In this document: in pieces, positions 21,815-61,454 of the stretch
Numbering within the stretch: the first letter of the stretch is position 1
Layout of the letters: each line of letters begins with the position of its first letter
NCBI GenBank assembly: GCA_964561785.1
Contig: CAZLRF010000001.1
Location: 77,201-141,200, forward strand
Direction: 5' to 3'
Source: an uncultured Acidobacteriota bacterium
Lineage (GTDB): Bacteria; Acidobacteriota; Vicinamibacteria; Fen-336
Length of the DNA: 64,000 nt
Made by a program: the position numbers and the translations under genes
The notes under the pieces: generated by a model
What the model saw: only the letters and a program-made list of their open reading frames with translations
Told to the model about the DNA's origin: nothing
Databases searched by the model: none

Positions 21815-21994
21815 GGCGCCTCGGCGCGGCGTCGGCGCCCCGAGGGCAGTGGTACGATTCCGCCTTCCGTCCAGCTCAACCCCGGGGGCCCCGATGACCA
21901 AGACGCCCGCGCCAATCCGGACCCGCCGCGCCGCGCTCGCCGCGAACCGCGACGCGACGATCGAGCGGCGCTTTCGCGCACAGCCGCCGACGGC

Positions 21995-24397
<2,403 letters not shown>

Positions 24398-28301: not shown

Positions 28302-28331
28302 CTGGCGCGCAGTTGTGGTCTCATCAAAAGT

Positions 28332-28374
28332 CCACAATCGGTAGAATCTGGACTTGACAGAAGTCCACATGCGC
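28332..28374 (+). promoter_or_regulatory. repeat-containing putative operator/promoter upstream of the DUF4143 ATPase gene
   Basis: AAGTCCACA at 28332-28340 and 28366-28374, with an inverted copy TGGACTT at 28354-28360. TAGAAT and TTGACA hexamers lie between the repeats. Confidence 0.35.
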
Positions 28375-28388
28375 AGGACACTCGTGTC

Positions 28389-29717
28389 GTGCCCCTGCAC
28401 CCGATCCTGGCCGACAAGCTGAGCTCCACGCTCGCGGCGAGCCCCGTCCCGCCGTTCACCCGGCGAGACGCCCGACTGCCGGCCATCGCGGGCAAGGTCC
28501 ATTCGGTCATCGGGATGCGCCGCGCCGGCAAGACGACCTTCCTGCACCAGCTTCAGGCGGAGAGGCGACGGTCGGTCCCGGTCGAGCGGGCGCTCTTCCT
28601 GAGCCTCGACGACGAACGCCTGGGCGGCATCGAGGTCGACCAGCTCGGCTTCCTGGTCGAGGAGTACTACCGGCGCTACCCGGCGTCGCGCGGGCGCGAC
28701 AGCGTGCTCTGGCTGCTCGACGAGGTCCAGCTCGTACCGGGCTGGGAGCGGTTCGTCCGCCGCGTGATCGACTCGGAGAAGGCCGAGATCGTCGTCTCGG
28801 GATCCTCCGCTCGCCTCCTCTCGCGAGAGGTGCACACGTCGCTGCGCGGTCGCGGGATCGCCACCGTCATCCGGCCCTTCAGCTTCCGCGAGTTCCTCAG
28901 GCACCGCGCCGAGGAGCCGCGCGAGGAGCCCCGCCGCTGGACTCCCGCCGAGCGGTCGCTCGTCGAGATGCGTTTCCGCGAGTACCTGGTCGAGGGCGGC
29001 TTCCCCGAGGCGCAGGGCCTCCCTGCCCCACTGCGCGTCGAGCTCCTCCAGGGCTACGTCGACACCGTCCTCTTCCGCGACGTGGTGGAGCGCTACGGCG
29101 TCACGCAGGTCGCGGCGCTGCGGTGGCTGGTGCGACACTGCCTGCGCAACCCCGCCGGCGCCTTCAGCGTCCACCGGCTGCACCGCGATCTCAGGTCCCA
29201 GGGGCACGGCCTCGGGCGAGAGGCGGTCGACGCGATGCTCGGCCACCTCCTGGACGCGTTCCTGCTCAGCGCCGTGCCGATCGCGACGGAATCGGAGCGG
29301 CAACGCAACTCGAACCCGCGCAAGCTCTACCCCGCGGATCCCGGCCTGATCGGGGCCTTCGACGCGTCGGGCCGCGCCAACGTCGGCCACGCTCTCGAGT
29401 CGGCCGTGCTGAACGAGCTCGACCGACGGGGCGCCGAGAGCGCCTACGTGAAGACCGAGGAAGGCCTGGAGGTGGACTTCCTCGCCCGCCACCCGGGAGC
29501 GGGAGAGGAGCTCGTCCAGGTGTGCGCGGACCCGTCGGAGCCGGGCGTGCGCGATCGCGAGCTGCGCGCCCTCGCTGCGGCCGCGGCGCTCCATCCGCGG
29601 GCCGAGCGGAGGCTCCTCGTGCTCGACCGCGACGCGCTCCCGCCCGTGGCCACGCCGGGCGTCGAAGTCCTGCCCGCCTACGAGTGGCTCCTCGCCCCCG
29701 AGCCGCGCGGAGGCTAG
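28389..29717 (+). CDS. AAA+ ATPase with DUF4143 (COG1373 family)
   Basis: Walker A (GMRRAGKTT), Walker B (LWLLDEV), and a C-terminal DUF4143-like region. It is a paralogue of the gene at 60294..61454. Confidence 0.75.
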   Translation: MPLHPILADKLSSTLAASPVPPFTRRDARLPAIAGKVHSVIGMRRAGKTTFLHQLQAERRRSVPVERALFLSLDDERLGGIEVDQLGFLVEEYYRRYPASRGRDSVLWLLDEVQLVPGWERFVRRVIDSEKAEIVVSGSSARLLSREVHTSLRGRGIATVIRPFSFREFLRHRAEEPREEPRRWTPAERSLVEMRFREYLVEGGFPEAQGLPAPLRVELLQGYVDTVLFRDVVERYGVTQVAALRWLVRHCLRNPAGAFSVHRLHRDLRSQGHGLGREAVDAMLGHLLDAFLLSAVPIATESERQRNSNPRKLYPADPGLIGAFDASGRANVGHALESAVLNELDRRGAESAYVKTEEGLEVDFLARHPGAGEELVQVCADPSEPGVRDRELRALAAAAALHPRAERRLLVLDRDALPPVATPGVEVLPAYEWLLAPEPRGG

Positions 29718-30900: not shown

Positions 30901-31101
30901 AGCGCGTGGAGGCGGCCTCCGAGTCCGTCCCAGCGCCTGGCCACCACCATCGCCCCCGCGGGCACCCGCGTCATCTCCGCCATCGGTCGGTGGCGATTGT
31001 AGACGCGTCCGCCGCTCCGGCCCTGGGGTAAAATCCCAGCCTCACGTCCCCCGTAGAACCCAGCCTCGACCAACGCCGAGCGGACCCGGAGGAGACCGAG
31101 C

Positions 31102-31908
31102 CTGATCGGAGAGACACTCGCGCACTACCGAATCACCGCCGCCACAGGCGCCGGGGGCATGGGGGAGGTGTACCGGGCCGCCGACACGAAGCTCGGGCGG
31201 GAAGTGGCGCTCAAGGTCCTGCCCGCTGCCCTCGCCTCCGACCCCGATCGGCTCGGCCGCTTCGAGCGCGAGGCGCGGGTCCTCGCGTCCCTCAACCACT
31301 CCGGCATCGCCCACCTCTACGGCTTCGAGAGCGCCCCGCTCCCCGACGGCGCGACGGCACACGTCCTCTTGATGGAGCTCGTCCCTGGCGAGGACCTCGC
31401 CGAGCGGCTCCGGCGCGGGCCCGTGCCCGTCGACGAGGCGATCGCGATCGCGAGGCAGGTGGCCGAGGCGCTCGAAGAAGCACACGAGAAGGGCATCGTC
31501 CACCGCGACCTCAAGCCGGCGAACGTCAAGGTCACGCCGGACGGCAAGGTGAAGGTCCTCGACTTCGGCCTCGCCAAGGCCTAGTCGGGCGAGAGCCCCG
31601 GAGCGACGTCGAGCGCCGATCTCTCGCAGTCCCCCACCCTCGCCGCGACCGGCACCGCGGCCGGGATCATCCTCGGCACCGCGGCCTACATGTCCCCCGA
31701 GCAGGCCCGGGGCAAGGCCGTCGACAAGCGCGCCGACATCTGGGCCTTGGGCGTCCTTCTGTTCGAGATGCTGACCGGCCGGCGCCTCTTCGAGGGCGAG
31801 ACGGTGAGCGACACGCTCGCGCCGGGGTCGATGGGGGGCGCGCCACGCCCTGAGGCCGCTCGCGCGGGGCGTCTCAGCGGCCGAGCGGGTCGACGACCAG
31901 AACCGTGA
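31102..31908 (+). pseudogene. Ser/Thr kinase paralogue with CTG at the start position and an in-frame TAG
   Basis: [30 protein letters not shown]...[27 protein letters not shown], then TAG at 31582-31584. It continues in the same frame with [47 protein letters not shown] and ends at 31908 with no C-terminal domain. About 85% identical to the intact kinase at 40990. Confidence 0.6.
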
Positions 31909-32088: not shown

Positions 32089-32676
32089 TCAGGCCAGGAC
32101 GTCGGCGACGGGAACGGGCTCGGGCCCGAACGGCTCGCCCGCGACCGACTCGGCGAGGGCGAACGCCGGCCCGGCGACCATCCGGCCCCGCACGTTCGTG
32201 AAGGTCTCGACCCGCTGGCGCTCGCAGTCGACGAGCCAGAGCGAGCCCACCCCCATCGTGCCGTAGGCCTCGGTCTTCACGCCCCGGTCGGTCGCCTCCG
32301 TGCCGGGCGAGAGCACCTCCGCCACCCAGTCCGGCATCAGCGTGACCGGCGAGAGGGCCATGTCGGGCCAGCCGGCCCCGCTTCGGCGCCAGCCCGCGAC
32401 GTCCGGAACGAGCCGGCTGAGCGCCCGCTCCGACCGCAGCTCCGGCTCCACCGCGAAGAACCAGTCCGGGGGCTCGCCACCCCGGCTGCGTCCGAAGCGC
32501 TGGTGGAGCGCGCCGAAGAGGCGTCCCTGGGCGGCCCCGTGCCGCGGCCTGGGCCGGGGCGACATCAGGTAGACCCCGGACGCGATCTCGCCGCTCACCC
32601 CTTCGGGCTCGTTCTCGAGACGCGCCTCGAGCGCCCGGAAGTGGCGGAGCAGGCTGTCGTCGACCGCAGTGGCCAT
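32089..32676 (-). CDS. Uma2 family endonuclease (DUF820, putative restriction-endonuclease-like)
   Basis: 196 aa from ATG 32674-32676. Typical Uma2 pattern ...EPEGVSGEIA......TDRGVKTEAY...GVGSLWLVD. Confidence 0.7.
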   Translation of the reverse strand: MATAVDDSLLRHFRALEARLENEPEGVSGEIASGVYLMSPRPRPRHGAAQGRLFGALHQRFGRSRGGEPPDWFFAVEPELRSERALSRLVPDVAGWRRSGAGWPDMALSPVTLMPDWVAEVLSPGTEATDRGVKTEAYGTMGVGSLWLVDCERQRVETFTNVRGRMVAGPAFALAESVAGEPFGPEPVPVADVLA

Positions 32677-32784
32677 GGCCTCGCCACGAGGATAGCACCA
32701 GAGCACAGGCCTCGGGCGGCGTGCGGTAGAATGCCGGCTCCGTTCCCCGTTGAACCCAACCGTCGCCGCCCGGAGGCCCCGACC

Positions 32785-33311
32785 CTGATCGGAGAGACCC
32801 TCGCCCACGACCGCGTCACCGCCCCGCTCGGCGCGGGGGGAATGGGCGAGGTCTTCTGCGCCACCGACACGAAGCTCGGCCGCGAGGTGGCCCTCAAGCT
32901 GCTGCCGGGGGAGCTCGCGGACCGATTCGGATCGCCTCGCCCGCTTCGAGCGCGAGGCCAGGGTCCTCGCCTCGCTCAACCACCCCGGCATCGCTCACCT
33001 CTACGGCTTCGAGAGCGCGACGCTCGCCGACGGCACGACGGCCCACGTCCTCGTCATGGAGCTCGTCGAGGGAGAGGACCCGGATGATGGTCGTCGAGCT
33101 GGGGCCCGGGGACCCTCTCGAGGCGTCCCGGCCGCAAGTCCTCTTCGAGGGCGAGTTCGCCGGAGGAGTCGGTCGCGAGCGAGGCTACGACGTCACCCCG
33201 GACGGGCAGCGGTTCGTCGTGGCCCGCGGGCGCTCGCAGGGCGGGGGCGAGGTCAACGTCGTCCTCAACTGGCTCGACGAGCTTCGCCTCCGCTCGTCGG
33301 AGTCGAGGTGA
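32785..33311 (+). pseudogene. Ser/Thr kinase paralogue collapsed by internal deletion (N-terminal lobe joined to the extreme C-terminus, with frameshift)
   Basis: CTG-ATC-GGA start (LIGETLAH...[26 protein letters not shown]...[14 protein letters not shown]...VMELVEGEDP), then a frame change at similar sequence (gtcgtcgagctggggcccggggaccc). It ends with ...YDVTPDGQRFVVARGRSQGGGEVNVVLNWLDELR, the C-terminal end of the propeller-type kinases. Confidence 0.55.
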
Positions 33312-33534
33312 CGCCGCGCCTGCAGGTCGTGCGCGTCCCCTCAGCTCGGCGTCTCGCCCGAGATCTCGCGCCAGAGGTCCGAGACGCCGAGCTCGGCGGC
33401 CCACCGCAGGGCCGTAGCTTGGCACCCGGGCCCGAGGCCCGGCGGATCGAAAGCCCGCTTCGCTGCTGGTAGAATCCCCCGTCCCCCGTGCACCGCACCA
33501 ATCGTCATCCCCCGGAACCCGAGGGCTTCGCGTC

Positions 33535-35823
33535 GTGATCGGCCGCACGCTCGCCCACTACCGCGTCACCGCCGCGATCGGCGCCGGCGGGATGGGCGAG
33601 GTCTACCGCGCCACCGACACGAAGCTCGGCCGCGACGTGGCCCTCAAGGTCCTGCCGGCCGAGATGGCCTCGCACCCGGAGCGCGTCGAGCGGTTCCGGC
33701 GTGAAGCGAAGGCCCTCGCCGCGCTCGACCACCCCGGCGTCGTCGGCGTGTACTCGGTCGAGGAAGCGGACGGCGTCCACTTCCTGACCATGCAGCTCGT
33801 CGAGGGCCAGCCGCTCGACCAGCTCATCCCCGAGGGTGGGATGCCGGTCGAGCGGATCCTCGAGATTGCTTCGGCGCTCGCCGAGGCCCTGGCCGCCGCT
33901 CACGAGAGGGGCATCGTCCACCGCGACCTCAAGCCGGCGAACGTCATGGTCGCCAGAGACGGGCGCCTGAAGGTCCTCGACTTCGGCCTCGCGCGAACGA
34001 GCGGAGGCCCGGCGGACGCGCCCGGCGGGTCGGAGCTGCCCACCGACCTTCGCACGCGCGAGGGCGTCGCGATGGGGACGGTGCCGTACATGTCGCCCGA
34101 GCAGCTCCAGGGGCGGGCCGTGGACGGCCGCTCGGACATCTTCTCCCTGGGCGTCGTCCTCTACGAGATGGCGACGGGTCGGCGGCCGTTCCGCGCCGAC
34201 AGCGCGGCGGCGCTGATGTCGGCCATCCTGCGGGACGACCCGGAGCCTGCGGTCCGGCTTCGCTCCGATCTGCCCCCGGCCCTTTCCCGCGTGATCGAGC
34301 GCTGCCTCGCGAAGGAGCCCGCGGCGCGCTTCCAGTCGGCCGCGCACGTGAGGTCCGCCCTCGAGGGCGCGCCGGAGGCGGCGGGCCGCGTGGCTCTCGC
34401 GGCCCGAGAGGCCGACACGAAGTCGATCGTGGTCCTCCCGTTCGCCAACCTGAGCCCGGATCCCGACACCGAGTACTTCAGCGACGGGCTGACCGACGAG
34501 ATCATCACCGACCTGTCACGCGTGCGGGCCCTGCGCGTGATCTCCCGGTCCTCGGCGATGCGCCTCAAGGGCGACGGGCGCAGCGTCGGGGAGATCGGCC
34601 GAGAGCTCGCCTGCCGGTACGTGCTCGAAGGAAGCGTGAGGCGCGCCGCGAGCACCCTGCGCATCACGGCCCGGCTGGTGGACGCGCCGAACGACGTCCA
34701 GCTCTGGGCCGACAAGTACGGAGGCACGCTCGACGACGTGTTCGACATCCAGGAGCGGGTGTCGCGGTCGATCGTGGACGCCCTCGAGATCCGGCTGACG
34801 CCGCAGGAGGCCGCGCAGCTCGCCGAGCGGCCGATCGCCGACGCTCGCGCCCAGGAGTGCTACCTCCGTGCGCGGAGCGAGATCTGGAGCTTCCTGCCGG
34901 GCGGCCTGGAGCGGGCCATCGGCCACCTGGAGGCCGCGCTCCGGCTGGTCGGCGAGAACGCCCTCGTCTACCAGGGGCTCGGCGAGGCCTACTTCCAGCA
35001 CGTCAACATCGGGGTCGCGGGCGGCCGGGAGGAGGAGCTCGTCCGGAAGGCCGAGTGGTGCGCGGACAGGATCTTCGCGCTCGAGCCCGACTCGCCGCGC
35101 GGGCACCTCGTCCGTGCCAACACCCAGCTGGCGCGGGGCGACGTCCACGGCTGCGGCCGGAGCCTGAGGCGCGCGCTGCAGGTCTTCCCGAACGACATCC
35201 CGGCGCTGCAGCTCTACACCCACGTGCTCGGCTGGCTCACCGGGAAGCCCGACGCGGCGGCGCCGGTGGCGGCGCGGCTCCTCGACGTCGACCCGCTCGG
35301 TGCGATCAGCCTCCTGATGGCCGCCATGATGCGGCTGTTCACGGGCCGGTTCGGCGATGCGCTCGAGCCCGCGCGCCGCATGTTCGAGCTCGACCCGGTC
35401 ACCCCGGTCTGCCGCGCGAACTACGCGATGGCCCTGGCGTACGACCGGCGGATCGAGGAGGCGGAGGCGCTGTGCGAGGGGGTGTCGGCTCAGCCGGATT
35501 CGGACGTCGGCACCTGGCAGATGGGACTCTGGCGGGCGGCCTGGCGAGGGGACCGTGCGGAGGTCCTGCGGCTCGCCGAAGGGCCCTACCAGCAGGCGGC
35601 CGCATGGGATGCGGAGATCCCCTGGCTCCTCGCGAGCGCCCACGCCGCGGTCGGCGCCACGGAGGAGGCGCTTCACTGGCTCGACCGCGCGATCGACGGC
35701 GGGATGATCAACTACCCCTTCCTCTCCGAGCACGACCGCAACCTCGACGGCCTGCGCGGCGACCCGCGGTTCGGCCGCCTGATGGAGCGGGCCCGGCGGG
35801 AATGGGAGCGGTTCGACGTCTGA
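33535..35823 (+). CDS. Ser/Thr protein kinase with C-terminal TolB-N-like and TPR domains (intact family member)
   Basis: GTG start gives [64 protein letters not shown]. Then the VVLPFANLS...DGLTDEIITDLSR TolB-N-like region and TPR-like repeats. 762 aa. Confidence 0.85.
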   Translation: MIGRTLAHYRVTAAIGAGGMGEVYRATDTKLGRDVALKVLPAEMASHPERVERFRREAKALAALDHPGVVGVYSVEEADGVHFLTMQLVEGQPLDQLIPEGGMPVERILEIASALAEALAAAHERGIVHRDLKPANVMVARDGRLKVLDFGLARTSGGPADAPGGSELPTDLRTREGVAMGTVPYMSPEQLQGRAVDGRSDIFSLGVVLYEMATGRRPFRADSAAALMSAILRDDPEPAVRLRSDLPPALSRVIERCLAKEPAARFQSAAHVRSALEGAPEAAGRVALAAREADTKSIVVLPFANLSPDPDTEYFSDGLTDEIITDLSRVRALRVISRSSAMRLKGDGRSVGEIGRELACRYVLEGSVRRAASTLRITARLVDAPNDVQLWADKYGGTLDDVFDIQERVSRSIVDALEIRLTPQEAAQLAERPIADARAQECYLRARSEIWSFLPGGLERAIGHLEAALRLVGENALVYQGLGEAYFQHVNIGVAGGREEELVRKAEWCADRIFALEPDSPRGHLVRANTQLARGDVHGCGRSLRRALQVFPNDIPALQLYTHVLGWLTGKPDAAAPVAARLLDVDPLGAISLLMAAMMRLFTGRFGDALEPARRMFELDPVTPVCRANYAMALAYDRRIEEAEALCEGVSAQPDSDVGTWQMGLWRAAWRGDRAEVLRLAEGPYQQAAAWDAEIPWLLASAHAAVGATEEALHWLDRAIDGGMINYPFLSEHDRNLDGLRGDPRFGRLMERARREWERFDV

Positions 35824-36109: not shown

Positions 36110-36115
36110 GTCGCG

Positions 36116-36550
36116 ATGCTGGCGGTCGACACCAACATCCTCGTGTACGCACACCGGCGGGAGGCGTCCGAGCACGCCGCCGCGACCGAGGTCGTGCGCT
36201 CCCTGGCCGAGGGTGCGCAGCCGTGGGCCGTCCCCTGGCCGTGTCTGTACGAGTTCTTCAGCGTGGTCACGCACCCGAAGATCTGGCGCGATGCGGCCAG
36301 CACTCCGTCGCAGGCCTGGGCGCAGATCGAGGCCTGGCTCGGCTCGCCCAGCCTGCGCCTGCTCGGCGAGACGCCGGAGTTCGGCCGCCTGCTCGCCCGC
36401 TTCCTGGACCGGCCACGGGTGCGAGGAGGTATCGTCCACGACGCCCGGGTGGCTGCGCTGTGCGTGGCCCACGGCGTCGAGGCGCTGCTCACGCGCGACC
36501 GCGACTTCTCCCTGTTCGAGGAGCTGCGCACCCGCAATCCCCTTGCCTGA
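36116..36550 (+). CDS. vapC: type II toxin VapC (PIN domain)
   Basis: MLAVDTNILVYAHRREA...VHDARVAALCVAHGVEALLTRDRDF is a classic VapC. Confidence 0.8.
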   Translation: MLAVDTNILVYAHRREASEHAAATEVVRSLAEGAQPWAVPWPCLYEFFSVVTHPKIWRDAASTPSQAWAQIEAWLGSPSLRLLGETPEFGRLLARFLDRPRVRGGIVHDARVAALCVAHGVEALLTRDRDFSLFEELRTRNPLA

Positions 36551-40989: not shown

Positions 40990-43038
40990 GTGCGTCGTCG
41001 CTGCGGTGGAGCGAGGAAGCTTCGCCGACGGGAGGCGATCCTGATCGGGCAGATCCTTTCGCACTACAAGGTCACCTCGGCCCTCGGGGCCGGGGGGATG
41101 GGTGAGGTCTACCGCGCCACCGACACGAAGCTCGGCCGCGAGGTCGCGCTCAAGCTCCTCCCCGAGGCCTTTGCCTCCAACCCCGATCGCCTCGCCCGCT
41201 TCGAACGAGAAGCGAAGGTCCTCGCCTCGCTCAACCACCCGGGCATCGCGCACCTCTACGGCTTCGAGAGCGCGCGCCTCGAGGGAGGGCCCACGGCTCA
41301 CTTCCTGGCCATGGAGCTCGTGGAAGGGGAAGACCTGGCCGAGCGGCTGAAGCGCGGGGCGATCCCCGTCGACGAGGCCGTCGCGATCGCGAAGCAGGTG
41401 GCCGAGGCCCTCGAGGAGGCGCACGAGAAGGGCATCGTCCACCGGGACTTCAAGCCCTCCAACGTGAAGGTGACGCCGGAGGGCAAGGTCAAGGTCCTCG
41501 ACTTCGGCCTCGCCACGGCCTTCACGGGCGAAGGGCCGGGCGCCGCGGCGAGCGCCGACCTGTCGCAGTCTCCCACGCTGGCCCGGACCGGCACCGCGGC
41601 CGGGATCATTCTCGGCACCGCGGCCTACATGTCGCCCGAGCAGGCCCGCGGGAAGCCCGTCGACAAGCGGACCGACATCTGGGCCTTCGGCGTCGTGCTC
41701 TTCGAGATGCTGAGCGGCCGGCGGCTCTTCACCGGCGAGACGGTGAGCGACGTGCTCGCGTCGGTGCTGAAGACCGAGCCCGACTGGAGGGCGCTGCCGG
41801 CGGCGACGCCCCCCCGCATCCGCGGAATGCTGCGGCGCTGCCTCGCCCGCGGCCCGAAGCTGCGGCTGAGGGACATCGGGGACGCGCGGCTCGTCCTCGA
41901 GGAGGCGCTGGCGGGCGCGCCGGGGGAGGAGTCGGCCCCGCCCGGGTCGACGCGCCCGTCCCGCGAGCGCACCTGGAAGGCGCTCGCCGCGGCCTCGACG
42001 CTCCTGGCCGTGGCGTTCGGGGCCTTGTGGGCGGGCTCGTCGCGCCGCACGTCGAGCCCGACGCCCGCGCTGCGGGCGTCGATCCCGCTCCCCGAGGGCC
42101 TTCACCTCGACGGGTTCGGGCCGCCGGTCCTCGCCCTCTCCCGCGACGGGCGGACCCTCGCGTTCGTGGCGCGAGGCGCGACGGGGGCCCCGCGCCTGTA
42201 CGTACGCCCGCTCGACGCCGCGCAGGCCGTCCTCGTCCCGGGCAGCGACACCGCGGAGGGACCCTTCTTCTCTCCCGACGGGCGGTGGGTGGCCTTCGCC
42301 GTCGGCACCTCGCTGGCCGGAGGGCAGCCTCCCGAGCTGCGCAAGTACTCGCTGGAGACGCAACTCACCCAGACGATCGGCCCGCTGGAGGACTACTTCG
42401 GCGGCGTGTGGCGCGAGGACGACTCGATCCTGTTCGTGGGGGCGGTCCCCGGGGGCCTGTGGACCGTTCCGGCCAGCGGCGGCGCGCCCCGGCTGCTCGT
42501 GGAGCGATTCCGCCGGGGCGATCGCGAGGAGGCCATGCGGGTGGCCTGGCCCGACCTTCTGCCCGACGGTCGGACCCTCCTCCTCAACGACGCGAACTCC
42601 CCCGCAGAGTCCCACCTCGTGACGGTGGACCTGGCGAGCGGCGAGATGAAGGACCTGGGCCTGCGAGGCTGGGGGGCTCGCTGGGTGTCCACCGGCCACG
42701 TCGTGTACGCGGGGCTCGACGCCTCCCTGATGGCGGTGCCGTTCGACGCGAAGGATCTCCGCCCGAAGGGGACGCCGGTGGCTCTGGCCCCCGACACCGC
42801 GCTCGCCCGCCTCAACGCTCCGGCCGTCGCGTTCTCGCACACGGGCACGCTGGTCCGCGCGACCGGGTACCTGCAGGGGAGCCGCCGGGAGCCCATGCAC
42901 GCGGTGGCCTTGACTGCCGCGGGGGCGAGGAGGCTCCTCTCGGCGGAGGCGGCCCTGTACGGGCGCGGCCTCGCGCTGCCCGAGTTCATGATCGAGATCG
43001 AGCTCGAGGCCCACAAGCCCCGGGACGCCGGCCGGTAG
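40990..43038 (+). CDS. Ser/Thr protein kinase with C-terminal TolB-like beta-propeller (intact family member)
   Basis: Kinase core [74 protein letters not shown] segment ALAAASTLLAVAFGALWA. Repeated SPDGR/DGRTL units with the NW-type C-terminal end. The first in-frame canonical start is GTG 40990, but the family-conserved position is CTG 41041, 5 nt after GGGAGG. Confidence 0.8.
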   Translation: MRRRCGGARKLRRREAILIGQILSHYKVTSALGAGGMGEVYRATDTKLGREVALKLLPEAFASNPDRLARFEREAKVLASLNHPGIAHLYGFESARLEGGPTAHFLAMELVEGEDLAERLKRGAIPVDEAVAIAKQVAEALEEAHEKGIVHRDFKPSNVKVTPEGKVKVLDFGLATAFTGEGPGAAASADLSQSPTLARTGTAAGIILGTAAYMSPEQARGKPVDKRTDIWAFGVVLFEMLSGRRLFTGETVSDVLASVLKTEPDWRALPAATPPRIRGMLRRCLARGPKLRLRDIGDARLVLEEALAGAPGEESAPPGSTRPSRERTWKALAAASTLLAVAFGALWAGSSRRTSSPTPALRASIPLPEGLHLDGFGPPVLALSRDGRTLAFVARGATGAPRLYVRPLDAAQAVLVPGSDTAEGPFFSPDGRWVAFAVGTSLAGGQPPELRKYSLETQLTQTIGPLEDYFGGVWREDDSILFVGAVPGGLWTVPASGGAPRLLVERFRRGDREEAMRVAWPDLLPDGRTLLLNDANSPAESHLVTVDLASGEMKDLGLRGWGARWVSTGHVVYAGLDASLMAVPFDAKDLRPKGTPVALAPDTALARLNAPAVAFSHTGTLVRATGYLQGSRREPMHAVALTAAGARRLLSAEAALYGRGLALPEFMIEIELEAHKPRDAGR

Positions 43039-46371: not shown

Positions 46372-46902
46372 TCACTCGTCCCTCGCACGCTCCACGCATG
46401 CCAGGGGAAGGAAGAGGGGCGTGGCCCCGCCGTGCATCCCGCCCTCGCGTACGCCCTCGAGGGGCTCGAAGCCGTATCGCGCGTAGAAGGCGACCGCGTC
46501 GGGCTTGGCGTCGGTGACGACCCCGACGCACCCCAGGGAGTCCCGCTGCACCAGCGCCAGGTCGAGAACGTGCCGCAGCAGGGCGCGCCCCACGCCGAGT
46601 CCCTGGGCGCGGTGGTCCACCGCGAACCGCGCGAGCCGCAGGACGGGGAGCGGATAGGCGGGCAAGCGTCGCCGCAGGCGAGCGGAGGGCAGGGTCCTGC
46701 GCTCCAGGCTGCCCACGCTCACCGTCGCAAAACCCGTCAGCCGTCCCTCCGCCAGGGCGACGTAGGTCACGGCGAGGTGGAGCTTCCACTGGTTCTGGCC
46801 GGCGTAGTGGTGGAAGAACCGGTCGAGGTCGGCCTGCCCGCAGGAGAACCCGCCGCGATCGTCGTCGGGCCGGAGGGGCCGGATCTCAAGCGCGGCGGCC
46901 AC
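46372..46902 (-). CDS. tacT: GNAT-family toxin (TacT/AtaT-like aminoacyl-tRNA acetyltransferase)
   Basis: 176-aa GNAT (RAQGLGVGRALLRHVL..., AFYARYGFEP). It sits immediately downstream of, and overlaps by 17 nt, a DUF1778 antitoxin gene. Confidence 0.7.
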   Translation of the reverse strand: MAAALEIRPLRPDDDRGGFSCGQADLDRFFHHYAGQNQWKLHLAVTYVALAEGRLTGFATVSVGSLERRTLPSARLRRRLPAYPLPVLRLARFAVDHRAQGLGVGRALLRHVLDLALVQRDSLGCVGVVTDAKPDAVAFYARYGFEPLEGVREGGMHGGATPLFLPLACVERARDE

Positions 46903-47161
46903 GCATCAGCTCCCGCAGGGCTTCCGAGGGCGCCGGGGCCCTCCCCACCGCGGCGGCGATGCGGTCGAACGACTCGTCGTCCAGGACGATGCGGGCCGGG
47001 ATCAGGGCCTCGTCGGGCAGGTCACGGCGGGCGGTCATGAAGAACAGGAGCGCCTGCTCGACCACGTAGTTCTTCTTGAGGCCGTGGCTCTCGGTGAACC
47101 GGTCCAGCTCCTCCTTGGTGGCCGAGGAGATCGTGGCCGAGATCTGGGACTGCGTGCTCAT
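46886..47161 (-). CDS. tacA: DUF1778 (TacA-like RHH) antitoxin
   Basis: ATG at 47159-47161 gives MSTQSQISATISSATKEELDRFTESHGLKKNYVVEQALLFF...IVLDDESFDRIAAAVGRAPAPSEALRELM. The N-terminal RHH region and a C-terminal toxin-neutralising helix are typical of DUF1778. Confidence 0.7.
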   Translation of the reverse strand: MSTQSQISATISSATKEELDRFTESHGLKKNYVVEQALLFFMTARRDLPDEALIPARIVLDDESFDRIAAAVGRAPAPSEALRELMRGRRA

Positions 47162-47707: not shown

Positions 47708-49948
47708 ATGACGAACCCGCCCGCTCCGCGCACGATCGCCGTCCTCACGAGCGGGGGCGACGCCCCCGGGATGAACGCCGCCGTGCGCGCGGTCGTGCGC
47801 ACGGCCCTCGCCCGCGGCCAGCGGGTCTTCGCGATCCGGGAGGGCTACGAGGGAGCGGTGGCCGGGGGCGACCGGATCGTCCCCATGACCTGGTCCTCCG
47901 TCGGCGGGATCCTCCACCAGGGGGGCACCGCGATCGGGACGGCCCGGTCCGACCGCTTCCGGACCCGCGAGGGGCGGCTCGCCGCGGCCGAGAACTTCCT
48001 CAAGGCGGGGATCGACAGCCTGGTCGTGATCGGGGGCGACGGCAGCCTGAGCGGAGCCGACGCCCTGCGACAGGAGTGGCGGGGCCTCGTGGACGAGCTG
48101 GTCGCGAGCGGCCGGGTCGACGCGGAGGCGGCGGCCCGGGCGATCCCGTTCAGCATCGTGGGCCTCGTCGGCTCGATCGACAACGACATGTCGGGCACCG
48201 ACATCACGATCGGCGCCGACACGGCGCTGCACCGGATCACCGAGGCGATCGACGCGATCGCCTCCACCGCGGCCAGCCACCAGCGCACGTTCGTGGTCGA
48301 GGTCATGGGCCGGCACTGCGGCTACCTCGCCCTCATGGGCGCGATCGCCACCGGGGCGAGCTGGGTCCTCATCCCGGAGAGCCCGCCCGACGTGGACGAC
48401 TGGGAGTCCACGATGTGCGAGCGGCTGCGCACGGGACGCCTGGCCGGCCGGCGCGACTCGATCGTGATCGTGGCCGAGGGGGCGCACGACCGCCACGGGA
48501 GCCCCATCACCGCCGAGCACGTCCGCAAGGTCCTCCAGGAGCGGCTCAACGAGGACGTGCGGGTCACGATCCTCGGCCACGTGCAGCGGGGCGGCGCGCC
48601 CTCCGCGTTCGACCGCTACATGAGCACGCTGCTCGGCCACGCCGCGGTCGAGGAGCTCCTCTCCTCGCCCCCCGGGAGCGAGCCCCAGCTCATCGGGATG
48701 AAGGACAACCGGGTCACCCGCCAGCCGCTCATGGAGTGCGTCGAGCAGACGCGCAAGGTGGCCTCCTGCGTGAAGGAGGGGCGCTACGAGGAGGCGATGG
48801 CCCTGCGGGGCCGCGGCTTCGCCTCGGCCCTGCGCACGCTGCGCACGATCGTCCGCGCCCTCCCCCACCCGCCGGCCGAGGGCCAGAAGCGCTACCGCTT
48901 CGCGATCATGCACGGGGGCGGCCCCGCCCCCGGCATGAACACCGCGGTGCGCGCGGCGCTGCGCCTGACGCTCGACCGCGGGCACCGCGTGCTCGGGGTC
49001 CGCAACGGCTTCAGGGGGCTCGTGGAGGGCGACTTCTTCGAGATGGGCTGGATGAGCGTCAACGGCTGGGCGAGCCGGGGCGGGGCCGAGCTCGGCACGA
49101 ACCGCCGCCAGCCCGCCGACCGCGAGCTGTACACGATCGCCCGCCACATCGAGAAGCACGAGATCGACGGGATCCTGATGATCGGCGGCTGGTCGGGCTA
49201 CTCCGCGATCGCGAAGCTCCACGCGGAGCGCGAGCGCTTCCCCGCCTTCAACCTGCCGATCATCTGCCTGCCCGCCTCGATCAACAACAACCTGCCCGGC
49301 TCCGAGCTGTCGATCGGGAGCGACTCCGCCCTCAACAACATCGTGAGCGCGGTGGACAAGATCAAGACCTCGGCGGTGGCGTCCCAGCGCTGCTTCGTGG
49401 TGGAGGTGATGGGCCGCCGGTGCGGCTACCTCGCGCTGCTCTCCGGCCTCGCCACCGGCGCCGAGCGCGTGTACATGCACGAGGACGGGGTCACCCTCGC
49501 CGACCTCCAGAAGGACCTCGAGTCGCTCAAGGACGGCTTCCGCCACGGCAAGCGGCTCGGCCTCCTCATCCGCAACGAGGACGCGAACCCCTTCTACACG
49601 ACCTCCTTCATGTGCGCCCTGTTCGAGCAGGAGGGGGGCGAGCTGTTCGACGTGCGCCAGGCGATCCTCGGCCACCTCCAGCAGGGCGGCGACCCGAGCC
49701 CGTTCGACCGCATCCTCGCGACACGAATGGCCGCGGAGAGCGTCGCCTACCTGGTCGAGGAGGCGGGCCGGGGCCCGAGGGGCCAGGCCGCGTTCGTCGG
49801 CATCCGGGAGGGCAAGCTCTCGATCACGCCGTTCGACGAGATGCCGCGCCTCATGGACCTCGAGAACCACCGCCCGAAGGAGCAGTGGTGGCGCCAGCTC
49901 GCGCCGATCGCCGAGCGGCTCGCCGCCCCCGGCCCCGGGTCCCCGTAG
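47708..49948 (+). CDS. pfkA: ATP-dependent 6-phosphofructokinase, tandem-duplicated (eukaryote-like two-domain) form, 746 aa
   Basis: The N-terminal half carries full PFK motifs: TSGGDAPGMNAAVRAVV, VIGGDGSLSGA, GTDITIGADTA, VEVMGRHCGYLAL. The C-terminal half is a second PFK fold (HGGGPAPGMNTAVRAAL, VEVMGRRCGYLAL). Its GGDGS has degenerated to GGWSG and its GxDTA to GSDSA. ATG 47708 is in frame with track ORF 47447..49948. Confidence 0.85.
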   Translation: MTNPPAPRTIAVLTSGGDAPGMNAAVRAVVRTALARGQRVFAIREGYEGAVAGGDRIVPMTWSSVGGILHQGGTAIGTARSDRFRTREGRLAAAENFLKAGIDSLVVIGGDGSLSGADALRQEWRGLVDELVASGRVDAEAAARAIPFSIVGLVGSIDNDMSGTDITIGADTALHRITEAIDAIASTAASHQRTFVVEVMGRHCGYLALMGAIATGASWVLIPESPPDVDDWESTMCERLRTGRLAGRRDSIVIVAEGAHDRHGSPITAEHVRKVLQERLNEDVRVTILGHVQRGGAPSAFDRYMSTLLGHAAVEELLSSPPGSEPQLIGMKDNRVTRQPLMECVEQTRKVASCVKEGRYEEAMALRGRGFASALRTLRTIVRALPHPPAEGQKRYRFAIMHGGGPAPGMNTAVRAALRLTLDRGHRVLGVRNGFRGLVEGDFFEMGWMSVNGWASRGGAELGTNRRQPADRELYTIARHIEKHEIDGILMIGGWSGYSAIAKLHAERERFPAFNLPIICLPASINNNLPGSELSIGSDSALNNIVSAVDKIKTSAVASQRCFVVEVMGRRCGYLALLSGLATGAERVYMHEDGVTLADLQKDLESLKDGFRHGKRLGLLIRNEDANPFYTTSFMCALFEQEGGELFDVRQAILGHLQQGGDPSPFDRILATRMAAESVAYLVEEAGRGPRGQAAFVGIREGKLSITPFDEMPRLMDLENHRPKEQWWRQLAPIAERLAAPGPGSP

Positions 49949-49977: not shown

Positions 49978-52338
49978 ATGGAAGACGACGAGGAAGCCGG
50001 GGGGAAGACCCCGCCTCTGGGCAGCGCGCCGCCGCGCCGCGGCGGCGTGGTGAGGCGCCTGCTCGACGGCCTGCGGGGCGGGACGCCGCGGCCGCCTTCG
50101 CTCGAGCCGCCGCAGCGGCTCGGCCGCTACCGCATCCTCGAGCGCATCGGCCAGGGGGGGATGGGCGTCGTGTTCGCCGCCGAGGACGAGAGCCTCGGCC
50201 GCCGCGTGGCGGTGAAGACCGTCGTCGAGCCGGACGAATCGGCCCGCGGCCGCTTCCGGCGCGAGGCGCGCGCGGCGGCGGCGGTCAACCACCCGAACGT
50301 CTGCCAGGTCTACGAGATCGGGGAGGACCGCGGCCAGCTCTTCATCGCCATGGAGCTGCTCGACGGAGAGCCCCTGTCGGAGAGGCTCGCCCGCGGCAGG
50401 CTCCCGGTGACAGAGGCGGTCGAGGTCGGACGATCGATCCTCTCCGCCCTCGCCGCCCTCCACGCCTCCGGTGTCGTCCACCGCGACCTCAAGCCCTCGA
50501 ACGTCTTCCTCTCGCCCCACGGGGTGAAGGTGCTCGACTTCGGCCTCGCGCGGCCGCTCCCGAGCGACATCACGCGCTCCCTCGAGGCCGGGACCGAGCT
50601 CACCCGCCCCGGCCTCCTCGTCGGCACGCCGCGCTACATGGCGCCGGAGCAGGTCCTCGGCCGCGCGGTCGACGCCCGCACCGACCTGTTCTCCACCGCC
50701 GCCGTCCTCTACGAGGCCGTGGCGGGGCGGCCCGCCTTCCTCGGGACGACGGTGGTCGAGGTGCTCTCGGCCACCCTCCACGAGGAGCCGCCGGCCCTCG
50801 GCGGCGACGCGACGGCGGTGGCGTTCGATCGCGCCCTGCGGCGGGCTCTGGCGAAGCGACCGGAGGAGCGTCCCGCCTCCGCGGACGAGCTGCGCGCGGA
50901 GCTCGAGGCCGTGGTCGCGAGAGCGCCGGGCGGCCCCGCCTCGGTCGCGCGACCCCTCAAGCGACTGGTCGTCCTGCCGTTCCGGGTGCTGCGTCCCGAC
51001 CCGGACGTGGACTTCCTGTCGTTCGCGCTCTCGGACGCCGTTTCCGCGTCGCTCGCGGGCCTGCCCACGGTGGTCCTCCGCTCGAGCGCCGTCGCCGCCC
51101 GCTTCGCCTCCGAGGCCCCCGACCTCGTCGCCCTCGCCTCCCAGGCGAACGTCGACCTCGTCCTGATGGGAACGCTGCTGCGCTCCGGCGACCGGATCCG
51201 GGCCAGCACCCAGCTCGTGGAGGCCCCCGCCGGCACCATCGTCGCCTCCCACGCCCTGCAGTCGGCGGTGGGCGACGTGTTCCGCCTCCAGGACGAGCTG
51301 GCGGAGCGGATCGTGGAGGCGCTCTCGCCCTCCCTCGACGCGCGGGAGCGCCCGGCTCGCCGGGCGGGGCCGGCGAGCGCGCGCGCGTACGAGCTCTACC
51401 TGCGGGCGAACGAGGCCGCGCGCGATCTGGCCGCGGCGGGGGCCGCGCGCGACCTGTACCGGCGCTGCGTGGAGGAGGACCCCGGCTTCGCCCCCGCCTG
51501 GGCGAAGCTCGGCCGGTGCCACCGGCTGCTCGCGAAGTACTCCCTCGAGGACCCGGCCGCGAACCTCGCCCTCGCCGACGCCGCCTTCCGCCGGGCCCTC
51601 GACCTCGACCCGGCCCTGCCCGTCGCCCACAAGCTCTACGCCCACCGCGAGGCGGAGACGGGGCGAGCGCGCGACGCGATGGTCCGCCTGCTCTCGCTCG
51701 CCCGCGAGGCCGGCAACGACCCCGAGGTCTTCGCCGGCCTCGTCCACGCGTGCCGCTACTGCGGCCTGCTCGAGGCGTCGGAGGCGGCTCACCGCGAGGC
51801 GCGCCGGCTGGACCCGCACATCTCGACGAGCGTCGTCTACACCTACTGGGCGCGGGGTGAGATGGAGCGCATCCTGACCGAGACGAGCGACGGGGCCGAG
51901 TTCGAGCTGCGGGCGATGGCGCTCGAGACGCTCGGGAGACGGGAGGAGGCGAAAGCGATCCTGGAGCGGGCGCGCGGCCAGGCCCTGACGCCGGTCTTCC
52001 TCTCGATCGTGAGCGCGCTCGAGAGCCTGCTCGCCGACGGCCCGCAGGCGGTCGAGGCCTTCGCCCGCCTCGCCGCGCAGCACAGCGACCCCGAGGCCCT
52101 GTTCCTGTACGGTTCGGCCCAGGCGCGGGTCGGCGACCGGAGCGGGTCCCTCGCCTCTCTCGCCGCGTCGGTGGCCGGGGGCTTCACGGTCCCCGACGCG
52201 CTGCGGGGCCACCCCTGGCTCGCGACGATCCGCTCCGAGAGCGTCCTCGCCGGCCTGGCGGAGCAGGCCGAGTCGGCGCGCGGCGAGGCCGCCCGGGCCT
52301 TCCTCGAGGCCGACGGCCCCTCCCTGCTCGGGGTCTGA
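49978..52338 (+). CDS. Ser/Thr protein kinase with TolB-N-like region and TPR C-terminal domain
   Basis: ATG 49978 is in frame with track ORF 48076..52338. GQGGMGVVFAA, VAVK, HRDLKPSNVFL, DFGLAR, YMAPEQ. Then LVVLPFRVLRPDPDVDFLSFALSD..., like the TolB-N domain of the kinase at 33535. TPR-like repeats follow. A TATACT hexamer lies 20 nt upstream. Confidence 0.85.
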   Translation: MEDDEEAGGKTPPLGSAPPRRGGVVRRLLDGLRGGTPRPPSLEPPQRLGRYRILERIGQGGMGVVFAAEDESLGRRVAVKTVVEPDESARGRFRREARAAAAVNHPNVCQVYEIGEDRGQLFIAMELLDGEPLSERLARGRLPVTEAVEVGRSILSALAALHASGVVHRDLKPSNVFLSPHGVKVLDFGLARPLPSDITRSLEAGTELTRPGLLVGTPRYMAPEQVLGRAVDARTDLFSTAAVLYEAVAGRPAFLGTTVVEVLSATLHEEPPALGGDATAVAFDRALRRALAKRPEERPASADELRAELEAVVARAPGGPASVARPLKRLVVLPFRVLRPDPDVDFLSFALSDAVSASLAGLPTVVLRSSAVAARFASEAPDLVALASQANVDLVLMGTLLRSGDRIRASTQLVEAPAGTIVASHALQSAVGDVFRLQDELAERIVEALSPSLDARERPARRAGPASARAYELYLRANEAARDLAAAGAARDLYRRCVEEDPGFAPAWAKLGRCHRLLAKYSLEDPAANLALADAAFRRALDLDPALPVAHKLYAHREAETGRARDAMVRLLSLAREAGNDPEVFAGLVHACRYCGLLEASEAAHREARRLDPHISTSVVYTYWARGEMERILTETSDGAEFELRAMALETLGRREEAKAILERARGQALTPVFLSIVSALESLLADGPQAVEAFARLAAQHSDPEALFLYGSAQARVGDRSGSLASLAASVAGGFTVPDALRGHPWLATIRSESVLAGLAEQAESARGEAARAFLEADGPSLLGV

Positions 52339-60293: not shown

Positions 60294-61454
60294 TCAGGAG
60301 AGATCGCCGGCCCACAGCTCGTCGAGGAACTCCCCGAGCGGCAGGATATCGACGTTTCCGACCCGCCGCCGTCGTCGGTCGAGGCTCACGCAGATCGCGC
60401 GCTTCAGCGTGCGCTCCTCGGCCAGCGCGACGAGGGCCCGCAGCTCGCGAGGCGCCACGTTCTCCTTCGCCTTGACCTCGATCGCCGTGTGGTCCCCGAG
60501 CACGAAGTCGACCTCGTAACCGGACGCCGAGCGCCAGTGGCCGACCGGGGCTCCCCCGGCGTAGTCCCGGTGGCAGACGAGCTCGTGGAGGAGGTACGTC
60601 TCGAAGGCCGAACCGAACTCCGGGGTCCCCGGCCGCACCAGGCGCCCCTGCAGCCAGGAGACGACGCCGACGTCGAAGAAGTAGTACTTCGGCGAGACGA
60701 GTGGCTTGCGGGTCGACGAGCGCGTCCAGGCCGGGACCTCGTGCAGGAGCAGGGTGTCGCGCAGGATGTCGAAGTACTCGTAGACCGTCGTGCGCGGCAC
60801 CTGGGCGTCGCTCGCCACGGCGGTGAAGTTCACGACCGTCGCGTTGCACGCCGCCGCGACCCGGAGAAGGCGGCTGAAGGCCGGGACGTTCCTCATCGCC
60901 CCTTCGGCCACGATCTCCTGCTGGAGGTAGGTCCCGGCGTAGGCCTCGAGGTCCGCCCCGGGGTCGTCGGAGAAGTAGATGGACGGGAGGAGTCCCCGGG
61001 ACACCGCGCGGGCGAGGTCGAAATGCGTCCCGAGCTCGCGACGGGTCAGGGGGTGCAGGTGACGCGTCCGGGCTCGGCCTCCCAGGAGGTTGACCCCGCC
61101 CCGCCTGAACTTCCGAGCGCTGGAGCCGGTGAGGAGGAACCGCGTCCCCCGCTCCTCGATCAGGCGGTGGACCTCGTTCAGGATCGACGGCAGGCGCTGC
61201 ACCTCGTCGATCACGACGACCTCGCCGCGACCCGTGACCTCCTCCGCCAGCCGCCCCGGGCGCTGGCTGAGGGCGAGGTAGACCGCCCCGTCCAGGAGAT
61301 CGTACACGCGGGCCTTCGGGAGCTGGCGCCTCGCGAGGGTGCTCTTGCCCGTCTGGCGGGGACCGAACAGGAAGTGCGACTTGCGGGCGAGCCACGCCTC
61401 GAGATCGACCGCGCGCTCGACGTGGGGCGTGGGCAACGTCATCTCAGTCGTCAT
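60294..61454 (-). CDS. AAA+ ATPase with DUF4143 (COG1373 family), second paralogue
   Basis: Walker A (GPRQTGKST), Walker B (VVVIDEVQ), and a DUF4143-type C-terminus. Its stop codon directly abuts the purL stop. Confidence 0.75.
   Translation of the reverse strand: MTTEMTLPTPHVERAVDLEAWLARKSHFLFGPRQTGKSTLARRQLPKARVYDLLDGAVYLALSQRPGRLAEEVTGRGEVVVIDEVQRLPSILNEVHRLIEERGTRFLLTGSSARKFRRGGVNLLGGRARTRHLHPLTRRELGTHFDLARAVSRGLLPSIYFSDDPGADLEAYAGTYLQQEIVAEGAMRNVPAFSRLLRVAAACNATVVNFTAVASDAQVPRTTVYEYFDILRDTLLLHEVPAWTRSSTRKPLVSPKYYFFDVGVVSWLQGRLVRPGTPEFGSAFETYLLHELVCHRDYAGGAPVGHWRSASGYEVDFVLGDHTAIEVKAKENVAPRELRALVALAEERTLKRAICVSLDRRRRRVGNVDILPLGEFLDELWAGDLS

Follow-up and report, generated by a model that had tools for sequence, protein, structure and literature searches.

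A two-domain 6-phosphofructokinase of the eukaryotic type in an Acidobacteriota bacterium, with a predicted catalytic N-terminal half and a predicted regulatory C-terminal half

The 64,000-nucleotide stretch of DNA analyzed here, which we call the window, derives from an uncultured Acidobacteriota bacterium (Vicinamibacteria; Fen-336; contig CAZLRF010000001.1) and carries a gene for a 6-phosphofructokinase (PFK) of 746 amino acids. It is highly probable, as judged from the features described below, that this gene encodes a genuine bacterial ATP-dependent PFK of the two-domain ‘eukaryotic type’, in which the N-terminal half (N-half) is catalytic and the C-terminal half (C-half) is regulatory, and that it shares the fusion event that gave rise to the eukaryotic enzymes. 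The gene, its two domains and the sequence motifs on which the argument depends are located as follows.

47708..49948, + strand: two-domain PFK gene (open reading frame, translation, TIGR02478, match to human PFKM, AlphaFold model)
47708..48862, + strand: predicted N-terminal catalytic PFK domain and inter-domain helices, residues 1-385 (PF00365 at residues 10-315)
48032..48046, + strand: GGDGS, the Mg-ATP loop of the catalytic half, E. coli G101-S105 (residue alignment)
48047..48160, + strand: region with an insertion of ~24 amino acids 3′ of GGDGS (L-INS-i alignment)
48173..48187, + strand: SIDND, with the catalytic base Asp158 (E. coli D127) and Asp160 (D129) (residue alignment)
48212..48226, + strand: GADTA of the N-half (motif mapping)
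48305..48313, + strand: MGR of the catalytic half, E. coli M169-G170-R171 (residue alignment)
48863..49945, + strand: predicted C-terminal regulatory (pseudo-catalytic) PFK domain, residues 386-746 (PF00365, 303 bits)
49184..49198, + strand: GGWSG, the degenerate counterpart of GGDGS, with D103>W (human GGFEA); Mg-ATP site lost
49277..49291, + strand: SINNN, the degenerate counterpart of SIDND, with both Asp changed to Asn (human TVSNN); catalytic base lost
49316..49330, + strand: GSDSA of the C-half (motif mapping)
49409..49417, + strand: MGR as kept in the C-half (human MGG), with Arg570 as part of the sugar-phosphate pocket (alignment, conservation)
49673..49684, + strand: HLQQ, the counterpart of HVQR, with His656 kept and R252>Q as in human Q664 (alignment, conservation)

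The open reading frame comprises 746 codons on the + strand, from an ATG at position 47708 to a stop codon at 49946-49948, and a GGAG sequence lies ~12-17 nucleotides 5′ of the ATG. This ATG appears to be the correct start because the close homologues recovered by a homologue search are 745-750 amino acids long and cover 99-100% of the query. Pfam recognizes PF00365 twice in the protein, at residues 10-315 and at residues ~397-681 (659.9 bits in total), and the two halves align with each other at 34% identity (E 2e-54, 171 bits). The initial annotation, which was made from the letters of the window, described a protein of this length with two PFK folds in tandem, and both the reading frame and the paired domain matches agree with that description.

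Family membership was evaluated with the models for two-domain PFKs (NCBIfam TIGR02478, InterPro IPR009161) and with the model for single-domain PFKs (TIGR02482). The window protein scores 982.6 bits against TIGR02478 (6PF1K_euk), for which the cut-off is 708.4, and residues 8-739 extend over profile positions 1-740 of 744. With TIGR02482 (PFKA_ATP; cut-off 371.35), the N-half and the C-half on their own yield 320.5 and 217.5 bits, respectively, both of which fall below the threshold, and the whole protein passes only via the sum of three stretches. The best matches of known structure are the muscle PFKs of rabbit and human (E ~1e-224 and ~1e-222), to which the protein is colinear over human residues 16-753. 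Identity to human PFKM is 48% overall, 55% for the N-half and 41% for the C-half, and single-domain bacterial PFKs match the window protein with only ~240 bits.

The structural comparison leads to the same relatives. An AlphaFold model of the protein (predicted local distance difference test 89.8, predicted template modelling (TM) score 0.91) superposes on human PFKP and PFKL structures (4u1r, 8w2g, 4rh3) with TM scores of 0.95-0.97 and root-mean-square deviations of 1.6-1.9 Å over ~735 columns, which is the two-domain arrangement of human PFK. Single-domain PFKs superpose on one half of the model only (TMq 0.39). This comparison shows that a single chain with two PFK folds reproduces the arrangement of a human PFK monomer, and such a monomer corresponds to two single-domain bacterial PFK subunits paired as a dimer.

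To map catalytic residues, the halves of ~80 tandem PFKs were aligned in a residue table with the PFKs of E. coli, B. subtilis and G. stearothermophilus. Residues named from this table carry E. coli numbers, and the E. coli reference sequence is 100% identical to that of PDB 1pfk. In the N-half of the window protein, G11, R72, D103, S125, D127, D129, R162, M169-G-R171, E222, R243, H249 and R252 are all present. The claim that the catalytic motifs remain intact in this half is thus borne out by the full residue set, and the positions proposed for GGDGS, GADTA and MGR in the N-half and for GGWSG, GSDSA and MGR in the C-half were all found. Conservation was assessed with a sample of 115 homologues of 68-98% identity, in which the N-half catalytic set is invariant except at S156 of the window protein (the S125 position), where 81% of the sequences carry Ser. 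The N-half therefore has an active site that is complete by sequence and should catalyze the conversion of fructose-6-phosphate (F6P) and ATP to fructose-1,6-bisphosphate (F1,6BP) and ADP. The insertion of ~24 amino acids after GGDGS is common to the N-halves of animal, fungal and amoebozoan PFKs, and single-domain PFKs are without it.

The C-half has taken a different course, as evident by the changes D12>P, D103>W, D127>N, D129>N and R252>Q, such that only one of the two halves carries all catalytic residues. It keeps R72, R162, M169-G-R171, E222, R243 and H249. The initial annotation was correct that the fold and MGR are kept and that GGDGS has become GGWSG, but its reading of DTA>DSA as degeneration does not hold, because the catalytic N-half of human PFKM itself carries GTDSA and E. 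coli PfkA carries GFFTA. The decisive losses are ones that it missed, namely SIDND>SINNN, HVQR>HLQQ and GGD>GGP. With the Mg-ATP aspartate, both catalytic aspartates, D12 and R252 gone, the alignment shows a C-half that would be unable to catalyze the PFK reaction. These states are widely held among the sampled homologues: Trp495 of GGWSG is found in 110 of 115, and position 526 in SINNN is Asn in 100 and Asp in 14.

A domain with lost catalytic motifs and less identity to its human counterpart than the N-half has (41% versus 55%) might be a functionless relic in the course of decay; alternatively, the retention of MGR, E222, R162, R243 and H249 might indicate a second working active site. We consider this pair of explanations very improbable. 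Mean conservation among the 115 homologues is 0.818 for the C-half versus 0.835 for the N-half, and the ratio of nonsynonymous to synonymous substitution rates (dN/dS), measured relative to five relatives, is 0.13-0.25 in both halves, neither of which fits a decaying relic. Furthermore, R466, K553, R561, M568, G569, R570, R650 and H656 of the window protein, among which are key residues of the pocket and the effector sites, do not vary in this sample, R722 is nearly invariant, and E624 and Q659 are conserved at 97% and 99%. A second active site is opposed by the five replacements listed above, through which the Mg-ATP ligand, the catalytic base and a substrate arginine have been lost. Because the two halves match in conservation and dN/dS and the pocket residues are invariant, the C-half is best regarded as a selected, non-catalytic module with a predicted capacity to bind ligands.

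The identity of the kept residues is informative in this regard. In the alignment with human PFKM, R466, R561, M568-G569, E624, R650, H656 and Q659 correspond to human R471, R566, M573-G574, E629, R655, H661 and Q664, which line the allosteric sugar-bisphosphate site of the mammalian enzyme and are annotated in UniProt as the fructose-2,6-bisphosphate (F2,6BP) site. The human citrate site evolved from the phosphoenolpyruvate/ADP effector site of bacterial PFK. Two residues of the citrate site in human PFKM, K557 and K617 (PMC2990764), align with K553 and R612 of the window protein. A catalytic N-half joined to an inactivated, effector-type C-half is the pattern of eukaryotic PFK, as the initial annotation had recognized.

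We therefore weighed the two origins that the initial annotation had offered for the protein, a relative of the eukaryotic fusion lineage or an independent fusion. Single-domain PFKs are the norm in bacteria, and one other tandem PFK (P0244, described below) has halves that cluster together, so independent duplications may occur; on these grounds, it might be proposed that a bacterial pfkA was duplicated and fused by convergence, without any link to the event in eukaryotes. However, the C-half alone matches human PFKM residues 392-753 with 434 bits and mammalian and yeast C-halves with 359-434 bits, as compared to 171 bits for its own N-half and 152-165 bits for single-domain PFKs. The derived states D12>P and R252>Q of the window C-half are also those of the human C-half and are common to eukaryotic C-halves, just as the insertion is common to eukaryotic N-halves. 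In addition, the full-length protein lies above the TIGR02478 cut-off, and one clade holds all C-halves in a tree of separated halves (74% bootstrap). By this evidence from sequence comparison, the window PFK is a member of the eukaryotic-type fusion lineage, descended from the same duplication and fusion as the PFKs of animals, fungi and amoebozoans. An independent fusion is therefore rejected, and we regard it as extremely improbable.

If the window PFK operates as its relatives do, the N-half would phosphorylate F6P with ATP, and the C-half would serve as a regulatory domain whose pocket binds a sugar bisphosphate as a putative activator. Nucleotide or anion effectors would occupy sites at the interfaces between the halves, as they do in the eukaryotic enzymes, and thereby shift the enzyme between its R and T states. 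F2,6BP is the main activator of animal PFK and is not known as a bacterial metabolite. The arginine of MGR contacts the 1-phosphate of the sugar in the catalytic site. At the position of Arg570, human PFKM and most eukaryotic representatives in the residue table carry Gly. The kept Arg570, the consideration given above for bacterial metabolites, and the binding of F1,6BP in the allosteric sugar site of human PFKL (PMC11345425) lead us to favor F1,6BP over F2,6BP as the putative ligand of the C-half.

Several points weigh against this functional reading. R612, the counterpart of human K617 in the citrate site, is conserved in 70% of the homologues, and H721, which aligns with human R735, in 19%, although the nearly invariant R722 beside it may be the true counterpart of R735. 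Likewise, several eukaryotic representatives keep MGR in the C-half, and therefore Arg570 alone cannot separate F1,6BP from F2,6BP. Finally, we infer the PFK activity, the oligomeric state and the effectors of the bacterial members from their sequences.

The window protein can be compared in turn with the three best-known groups of PFK. It shares with the animal enzymes (human PFKM, PFKP and PFKL and rabbit muscle PFK; 4omt, 3o8l, 4u1r, 8w2g) a colinear two-domain chain of ~750 amino acids, the N-half active site and insertion, and a catalytically dead C-half that retains sugar-bisphosphate pocket residues and a citrate-site lysine. It differs in its C-half motifs, where human GGFEA, TVSNN and MGG stand opposite GGWSG, SINNN and MGR. 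The vertebrate-type C-terminal tail (subfamily IPR041914) is missing, as evident by an alignment that ends at residue 739 of 746 in the query and at residue 753 of 780 in human PFKM, which leaves the window protein with 7 residues beyond the last aligned one and without the autoinhibitory tail of vertebrates. This tail of ~27 amino acids stabilizes the T state of the vertebrate enzyme (PMC11345425).

Fungal PFK alpha and beta (S. cerevisiae 3o8o, K. pastoris 3opy) are likewise tandem proteins with a degenerate C-half (615-634 bits, TM scores of 0.92-0.95), but the window protein is without their N-terminal glyoxalase-like extension of ~200 amino acids, and there is no sign of alpha/beta paralogues. 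Representatives of fungal length (960-1060 amino acids) mostly carry QGG or HGG where the window protein carries MGR. With single-domain PfkA (E. coli 1pfk, G. stearothermophilus 3pfk/6pfk), the N-half shares an identical catalytic set and each half shares the fold (TMt ~0.9), whereas the window protein is of double length, has covalently fused halves and carries the extra insertion in its N-half. Effector position 154 is Arg in PfkA, Ala in the N-half and Lys in the C-half, and position 187 is Ser/Glu.

Two-domain PFKs of this type are not confined to the window. The homologue search listed 120 clusters of 68-98% identity, all of them of the bacterial type, and where a cluster bears a functional name, it is ‘6-phosphofructokinase’ (NCBI, nr) or ‘6-phosphofructokinase 1’ (JGI). 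Among GTDB species representatives, 27 loci were found in Vicinamibacteria and other Acidobacteriota, in Anaerolineae and other Chloroflexota, and in Propionibacteriaceae. Further carriers include Arcanobacterium (Actinomycetaceae), Lewinellaceae and Phaeodactylibacter (Bacteroidota), and many Syntrophobacteria, among them Desulfacinum infernum DSM 9756, D. hydrothermale DSM 13146, Thermodesulforhabdus norvegica and Desulfoferrobacter suflitae, all of them cultured; a cultured strain of Arcanobacterium urinimassiliense also has a homologue. Two-domain PFK is therefore widespread, with hundreds of bacterial copies in at least five phyla. The other bacterial proteins (those of Desulfacinum and its relatives, Lewinellaceae, Arcanobacterium, Anaerolineae and Propionibacteriaceae) resemble the window protein in family, in the fusion, in identity (47-67%) and in their annotation as ‘6-phosphofructokinase’, and they differ in that the degeneracy of the C-half varies by group.

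This distribution bears on novelty. The description of a bacterial example as rare is contradicted by its occurrence in at least five phyla and by the names already assigned through the NCBI and JGI pipelines, and the TIGR02478 description already lists one bacterial exception, Propionibacterium acnes. By the criterion that the initial annotation itself had set, most of the suspected novelty is consequently gone, since the long form is widespread and catalogued; what stands is that a biochemical characterization of a bacterial member was not found in the literature. Our literature search recovered no paper that describes or characterizes a bacterial tandem PFK, although such an absence is not proof that none has been published. 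Both a PFK superfamily review from 2025 (PMC12203962) and a paper from 2024 on the structure of human PFKL (PMC11345425) treat the duplication and the regulatory domain as eukaryotic. For the single gene in the window, little is changed by our findings, given that it was already correctly called a 6-phosphofructokinase and belongs to a family with curated models. Bacterial two-domain PFKs are nevertheless simple, intron-free and expressible in E. coli, and thus could be used to study how a catalytic duplicate becomes an allosteric module.

Most relatives of the window protein come from metagenome-assembled genomes (MAGs), and eukaryotic contamination or a chimeric assembly in a metagenomic bin might be suspected for this reason. 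This explanation carries an almost negligible likelihood. The gene is free of introns and has a GC content of 0.727 and a third-position GC content (GC3) of 0.99, values similar to those of its neighbors. Its flanking genes are bacterial and encode Ser/Thr kinases, an FMO-like oxidoreductase, an alpha/beta hydrolase, SnoaL, GNAT, CorA, LarA, PurL, GH94 and DAHP synthase proteins. A block of genes for PFK, a phospholipase-B-like protein, CorA and LarA recurs in independent MAG loci, two of which lie on contigs of 1.4 Mb (L001) and 1.1 Mb (L005). The nearest named relatives are from Vicinamibacteria (Acidobacteriota; 87-89% identity), and the homologues in the cultured strains of Desulfacinum infernum, D. 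hydrothermale, Thermodesulforhabdus norvegica and Arcanobacterium urinimassiliense likewise argue against contamination.

The evolutionary context was examined with full-length tandem PFKs (~80) from a search of representatives at 50% identity. All trees were built by neighbor joining with Kimura-corrected distances, and many tips are unlabelled; the labelled eukaryotic tips are human, Caenorhabditis, Balamuthia, Cavenderia, Flabellula, Amphiamblys and the marine protist transcriptome MMETSP0958. The tree of separated halves (300 bootstraps), in which the N- and C-halves serve as mutual paralogue outgroups for rooting, was computed on a cleaned set, since neither the N clade nor the C clade had any support (0%) in an earlier set with the mis-split or odd sequences P0157, P0244 and P0249.

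Some bacterial members have C-halves that are much less degenerate than that of the window protein, with GAD, TIDNN or TIDND, MGR and HLQR motifs (P0132 and P0306-P0424 of the Syntrophobacteria, P0205 and P0169). The character states of the groups are as follows.

Syntrophobacteria: C-half keeps D12, D127, R171 and R252 (GAD, TIDNN, MGR, HLQR); N-half insertion present
Lewinellaceae: C-half keeps D12, R171 and R252 (GAD, MGR, QMQR); N-half insertion absent
P0169: C-half keeps D12, D127, D129 and R252; N-half insertion absent
Labelled eukaryotes: none of D12, D127, D129 and R252 kept; N-half insertion present where compared (human, Balamuthia, Cavenderia)

The Arcanobacterium C-half keeps D127, and in the clade of the window protein D12, D127, D129 and R252 have all been lost. 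If the fusion arose in Bacteria, living bacteria would display a graded inactivation of the C-half that runs from Lewinellaceae and P0169 through Syntrophobacteria and Arcanobacterium (D127) to Vicinamibacteria and then to most eukaryotes, with a final step from the window gene, which keeps R171 only, to most eukaryotes, which keep none. By these residues, the less degenerate bacterial tandem PFKs look like natural intermediates between a catalytic and a regulatory domain, and the existence of such intermediates could be valuable for work on the evolution of allostery.

The trees place these same groups at the root. The base of both half-trees is bacterial, with P0205 (Lewinellaceae), P0169, P0231 and P0249 followed by P0132 of the Syntrophobacteria, and support is 86% for the N core clade and 74% for the C core together with P0132. 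When the full-length tree is rooted on the basal bacterial groups, the other 55 sequences form a clade with 99% support, although its internal backbone, with bootstraps of 9-26%, is not resolved. All labelled eukaryotes fall in one subtree of the full-length tree, and all labelled bacteria fall outside it. A midpoint-rooted version, which sets bacteria beside Amoebozoa, was not relied on because midpoint rooting is unsafe here.

From the parsimony of the character states and from the rooting, we tentatively favor a bacterial origin followed by later transfer to eukaryotes, a history to which we assign slightly less than an even chance. The duplication and fusion would have arisen in Bacteria, the window PFK would belong to a bacterial sister lineage of the enzyme of animals, fungi and amoebozoans, and a bacterium would have passed to eukaryotes a two-domain PFK that was allosteric from the outset. 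These trees may be affected by long-branch attraction to the paralogue root, and the basal bacterial groups could be separate fusions.

Alternatively, the window gene might be a xenologue, with a eukaryote such as an amoebozoan grazer having donated a finished two-domain PFK that then spread across bacterial phyla. The 48% identity to human PFKM is in keeping with such a donation, as is the position of the bacteria next to Balamuthia, Cavenderia and Flabellula in the midpoint-rooted tree. The low bootstraps along the backbone of the core clade also leave room for it, and the patchy distribution among phyla, with copies in Acidobacteriota and Chloroflexota that are 67% identical, implies that the gene has moved laterally from one bacterium to another. 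We nonetheless judge this course of events to be rather unlikely. The C-halves of Syntrophobacteria and Lewinellaceae retain ancestral states that are gone from all labelled eukaryotes, Lewinellaceae (P0205) and P0169 are without the N-half insertion, and the less degenerate bacteria are basal in both half-trees, with the rest united as a strongly supported clade. Moreover, no labelled bacterium is nested within the labelled eukaryotes, nor is the reverse seen, and the GC3 of 0.99 represents full adaptation to the host, which speaks against a recent transfer. Should the bacterial origin be true, it would revise the history of a well-known example of the evolution of allostery, which textbooks credit to eukaryotes.

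One tandem protein stands apart in the trees. The N- and C-halves of P0244 (730 amino acids) cluster together and share an odd KTMDN motif. This protein may represent an independent and more recent duplication, or it may be an artefact of the splitting of halves.

Downstream of the window PFK lies a further gene that deserves mention.

49978..52338, + strand: Ser/Thr protein kinase with a TPR-containing C-terminal region (Pkinase domain, E 3e-42)

This gene begins 29 nucleotides past the PFK stop codon. In the pfk-pkn4 operon of M. xanthus, a Ser/Thr kinase activates PFK (Nariya and Inouye, 2002, as cited in PMC2887360), and by analogy it is possible that the kinase in the window regulates the adjacent PFK. 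The two systems resemble each other in gene layout, with a Ser/Thr kinase gene directly behind pfk and in the same orientation, but in the window lineage the linkage is kept in the closest relatives only. The kinase is found 3′ of PFK in loci L001, L002, L004 and L027 and is absent from L003, L021 and all loci below ~85% identity. It was therefore not taken as a conserved partner of PFK, and the adjacency is treated as a lead. The adjacency could also be due to chance because the window holds five Ser/Thr kinase open reading frames within 64 kb.

These five reading frames, at 21815-24397, 31057-31584, 33418-35823, 40990-43038 and 49978-52338, are all on the + strand, and several of the kinases carry TPR or PD40 repeats, which makes this an unusually kinase-rich stretch. 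In the reading frame at 31057-31584, the kinase domain is represented by its N-terminal part only, and this frame may be a truncated one. The spacing between the genes for PFK and the phospholipase-B-like protein also varies: L003 (8209-10683) has ~2.4 kb of unrelated sequence, L021 (1444-1587) next to nothing, and in the window the kinase gene fills the space. Given that this spacing is variable among close relatives, the slot occupied by the kinase appears to be a hotspot for insertion and deletion.

Upstream of pfk and on the opposite strand, a reading frame of 91 amino acids (46886-47161, − strand; MSTQSQISATISS...) overlaps with the 5′ end of a gene for a GNAT acetyltransferase (46372-46905, − strand). 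By eye, this pair resembles a DUF1778/RHH antitoxin with a GNAT toxin (TacAT-like), both in layout and in C-terminal sequence, and a Pfam search with the 91-residue product gave no match. Elsewhere in the window there are two paralogous ATPase genes with AAA_14 and DUF4143 domains (28302-29717, + strand, and 60294-61454, − strand), and between them lie reading frames for a PIN-domain protein (36110-36550) and a Uma2-family nuclease (32089-32994).

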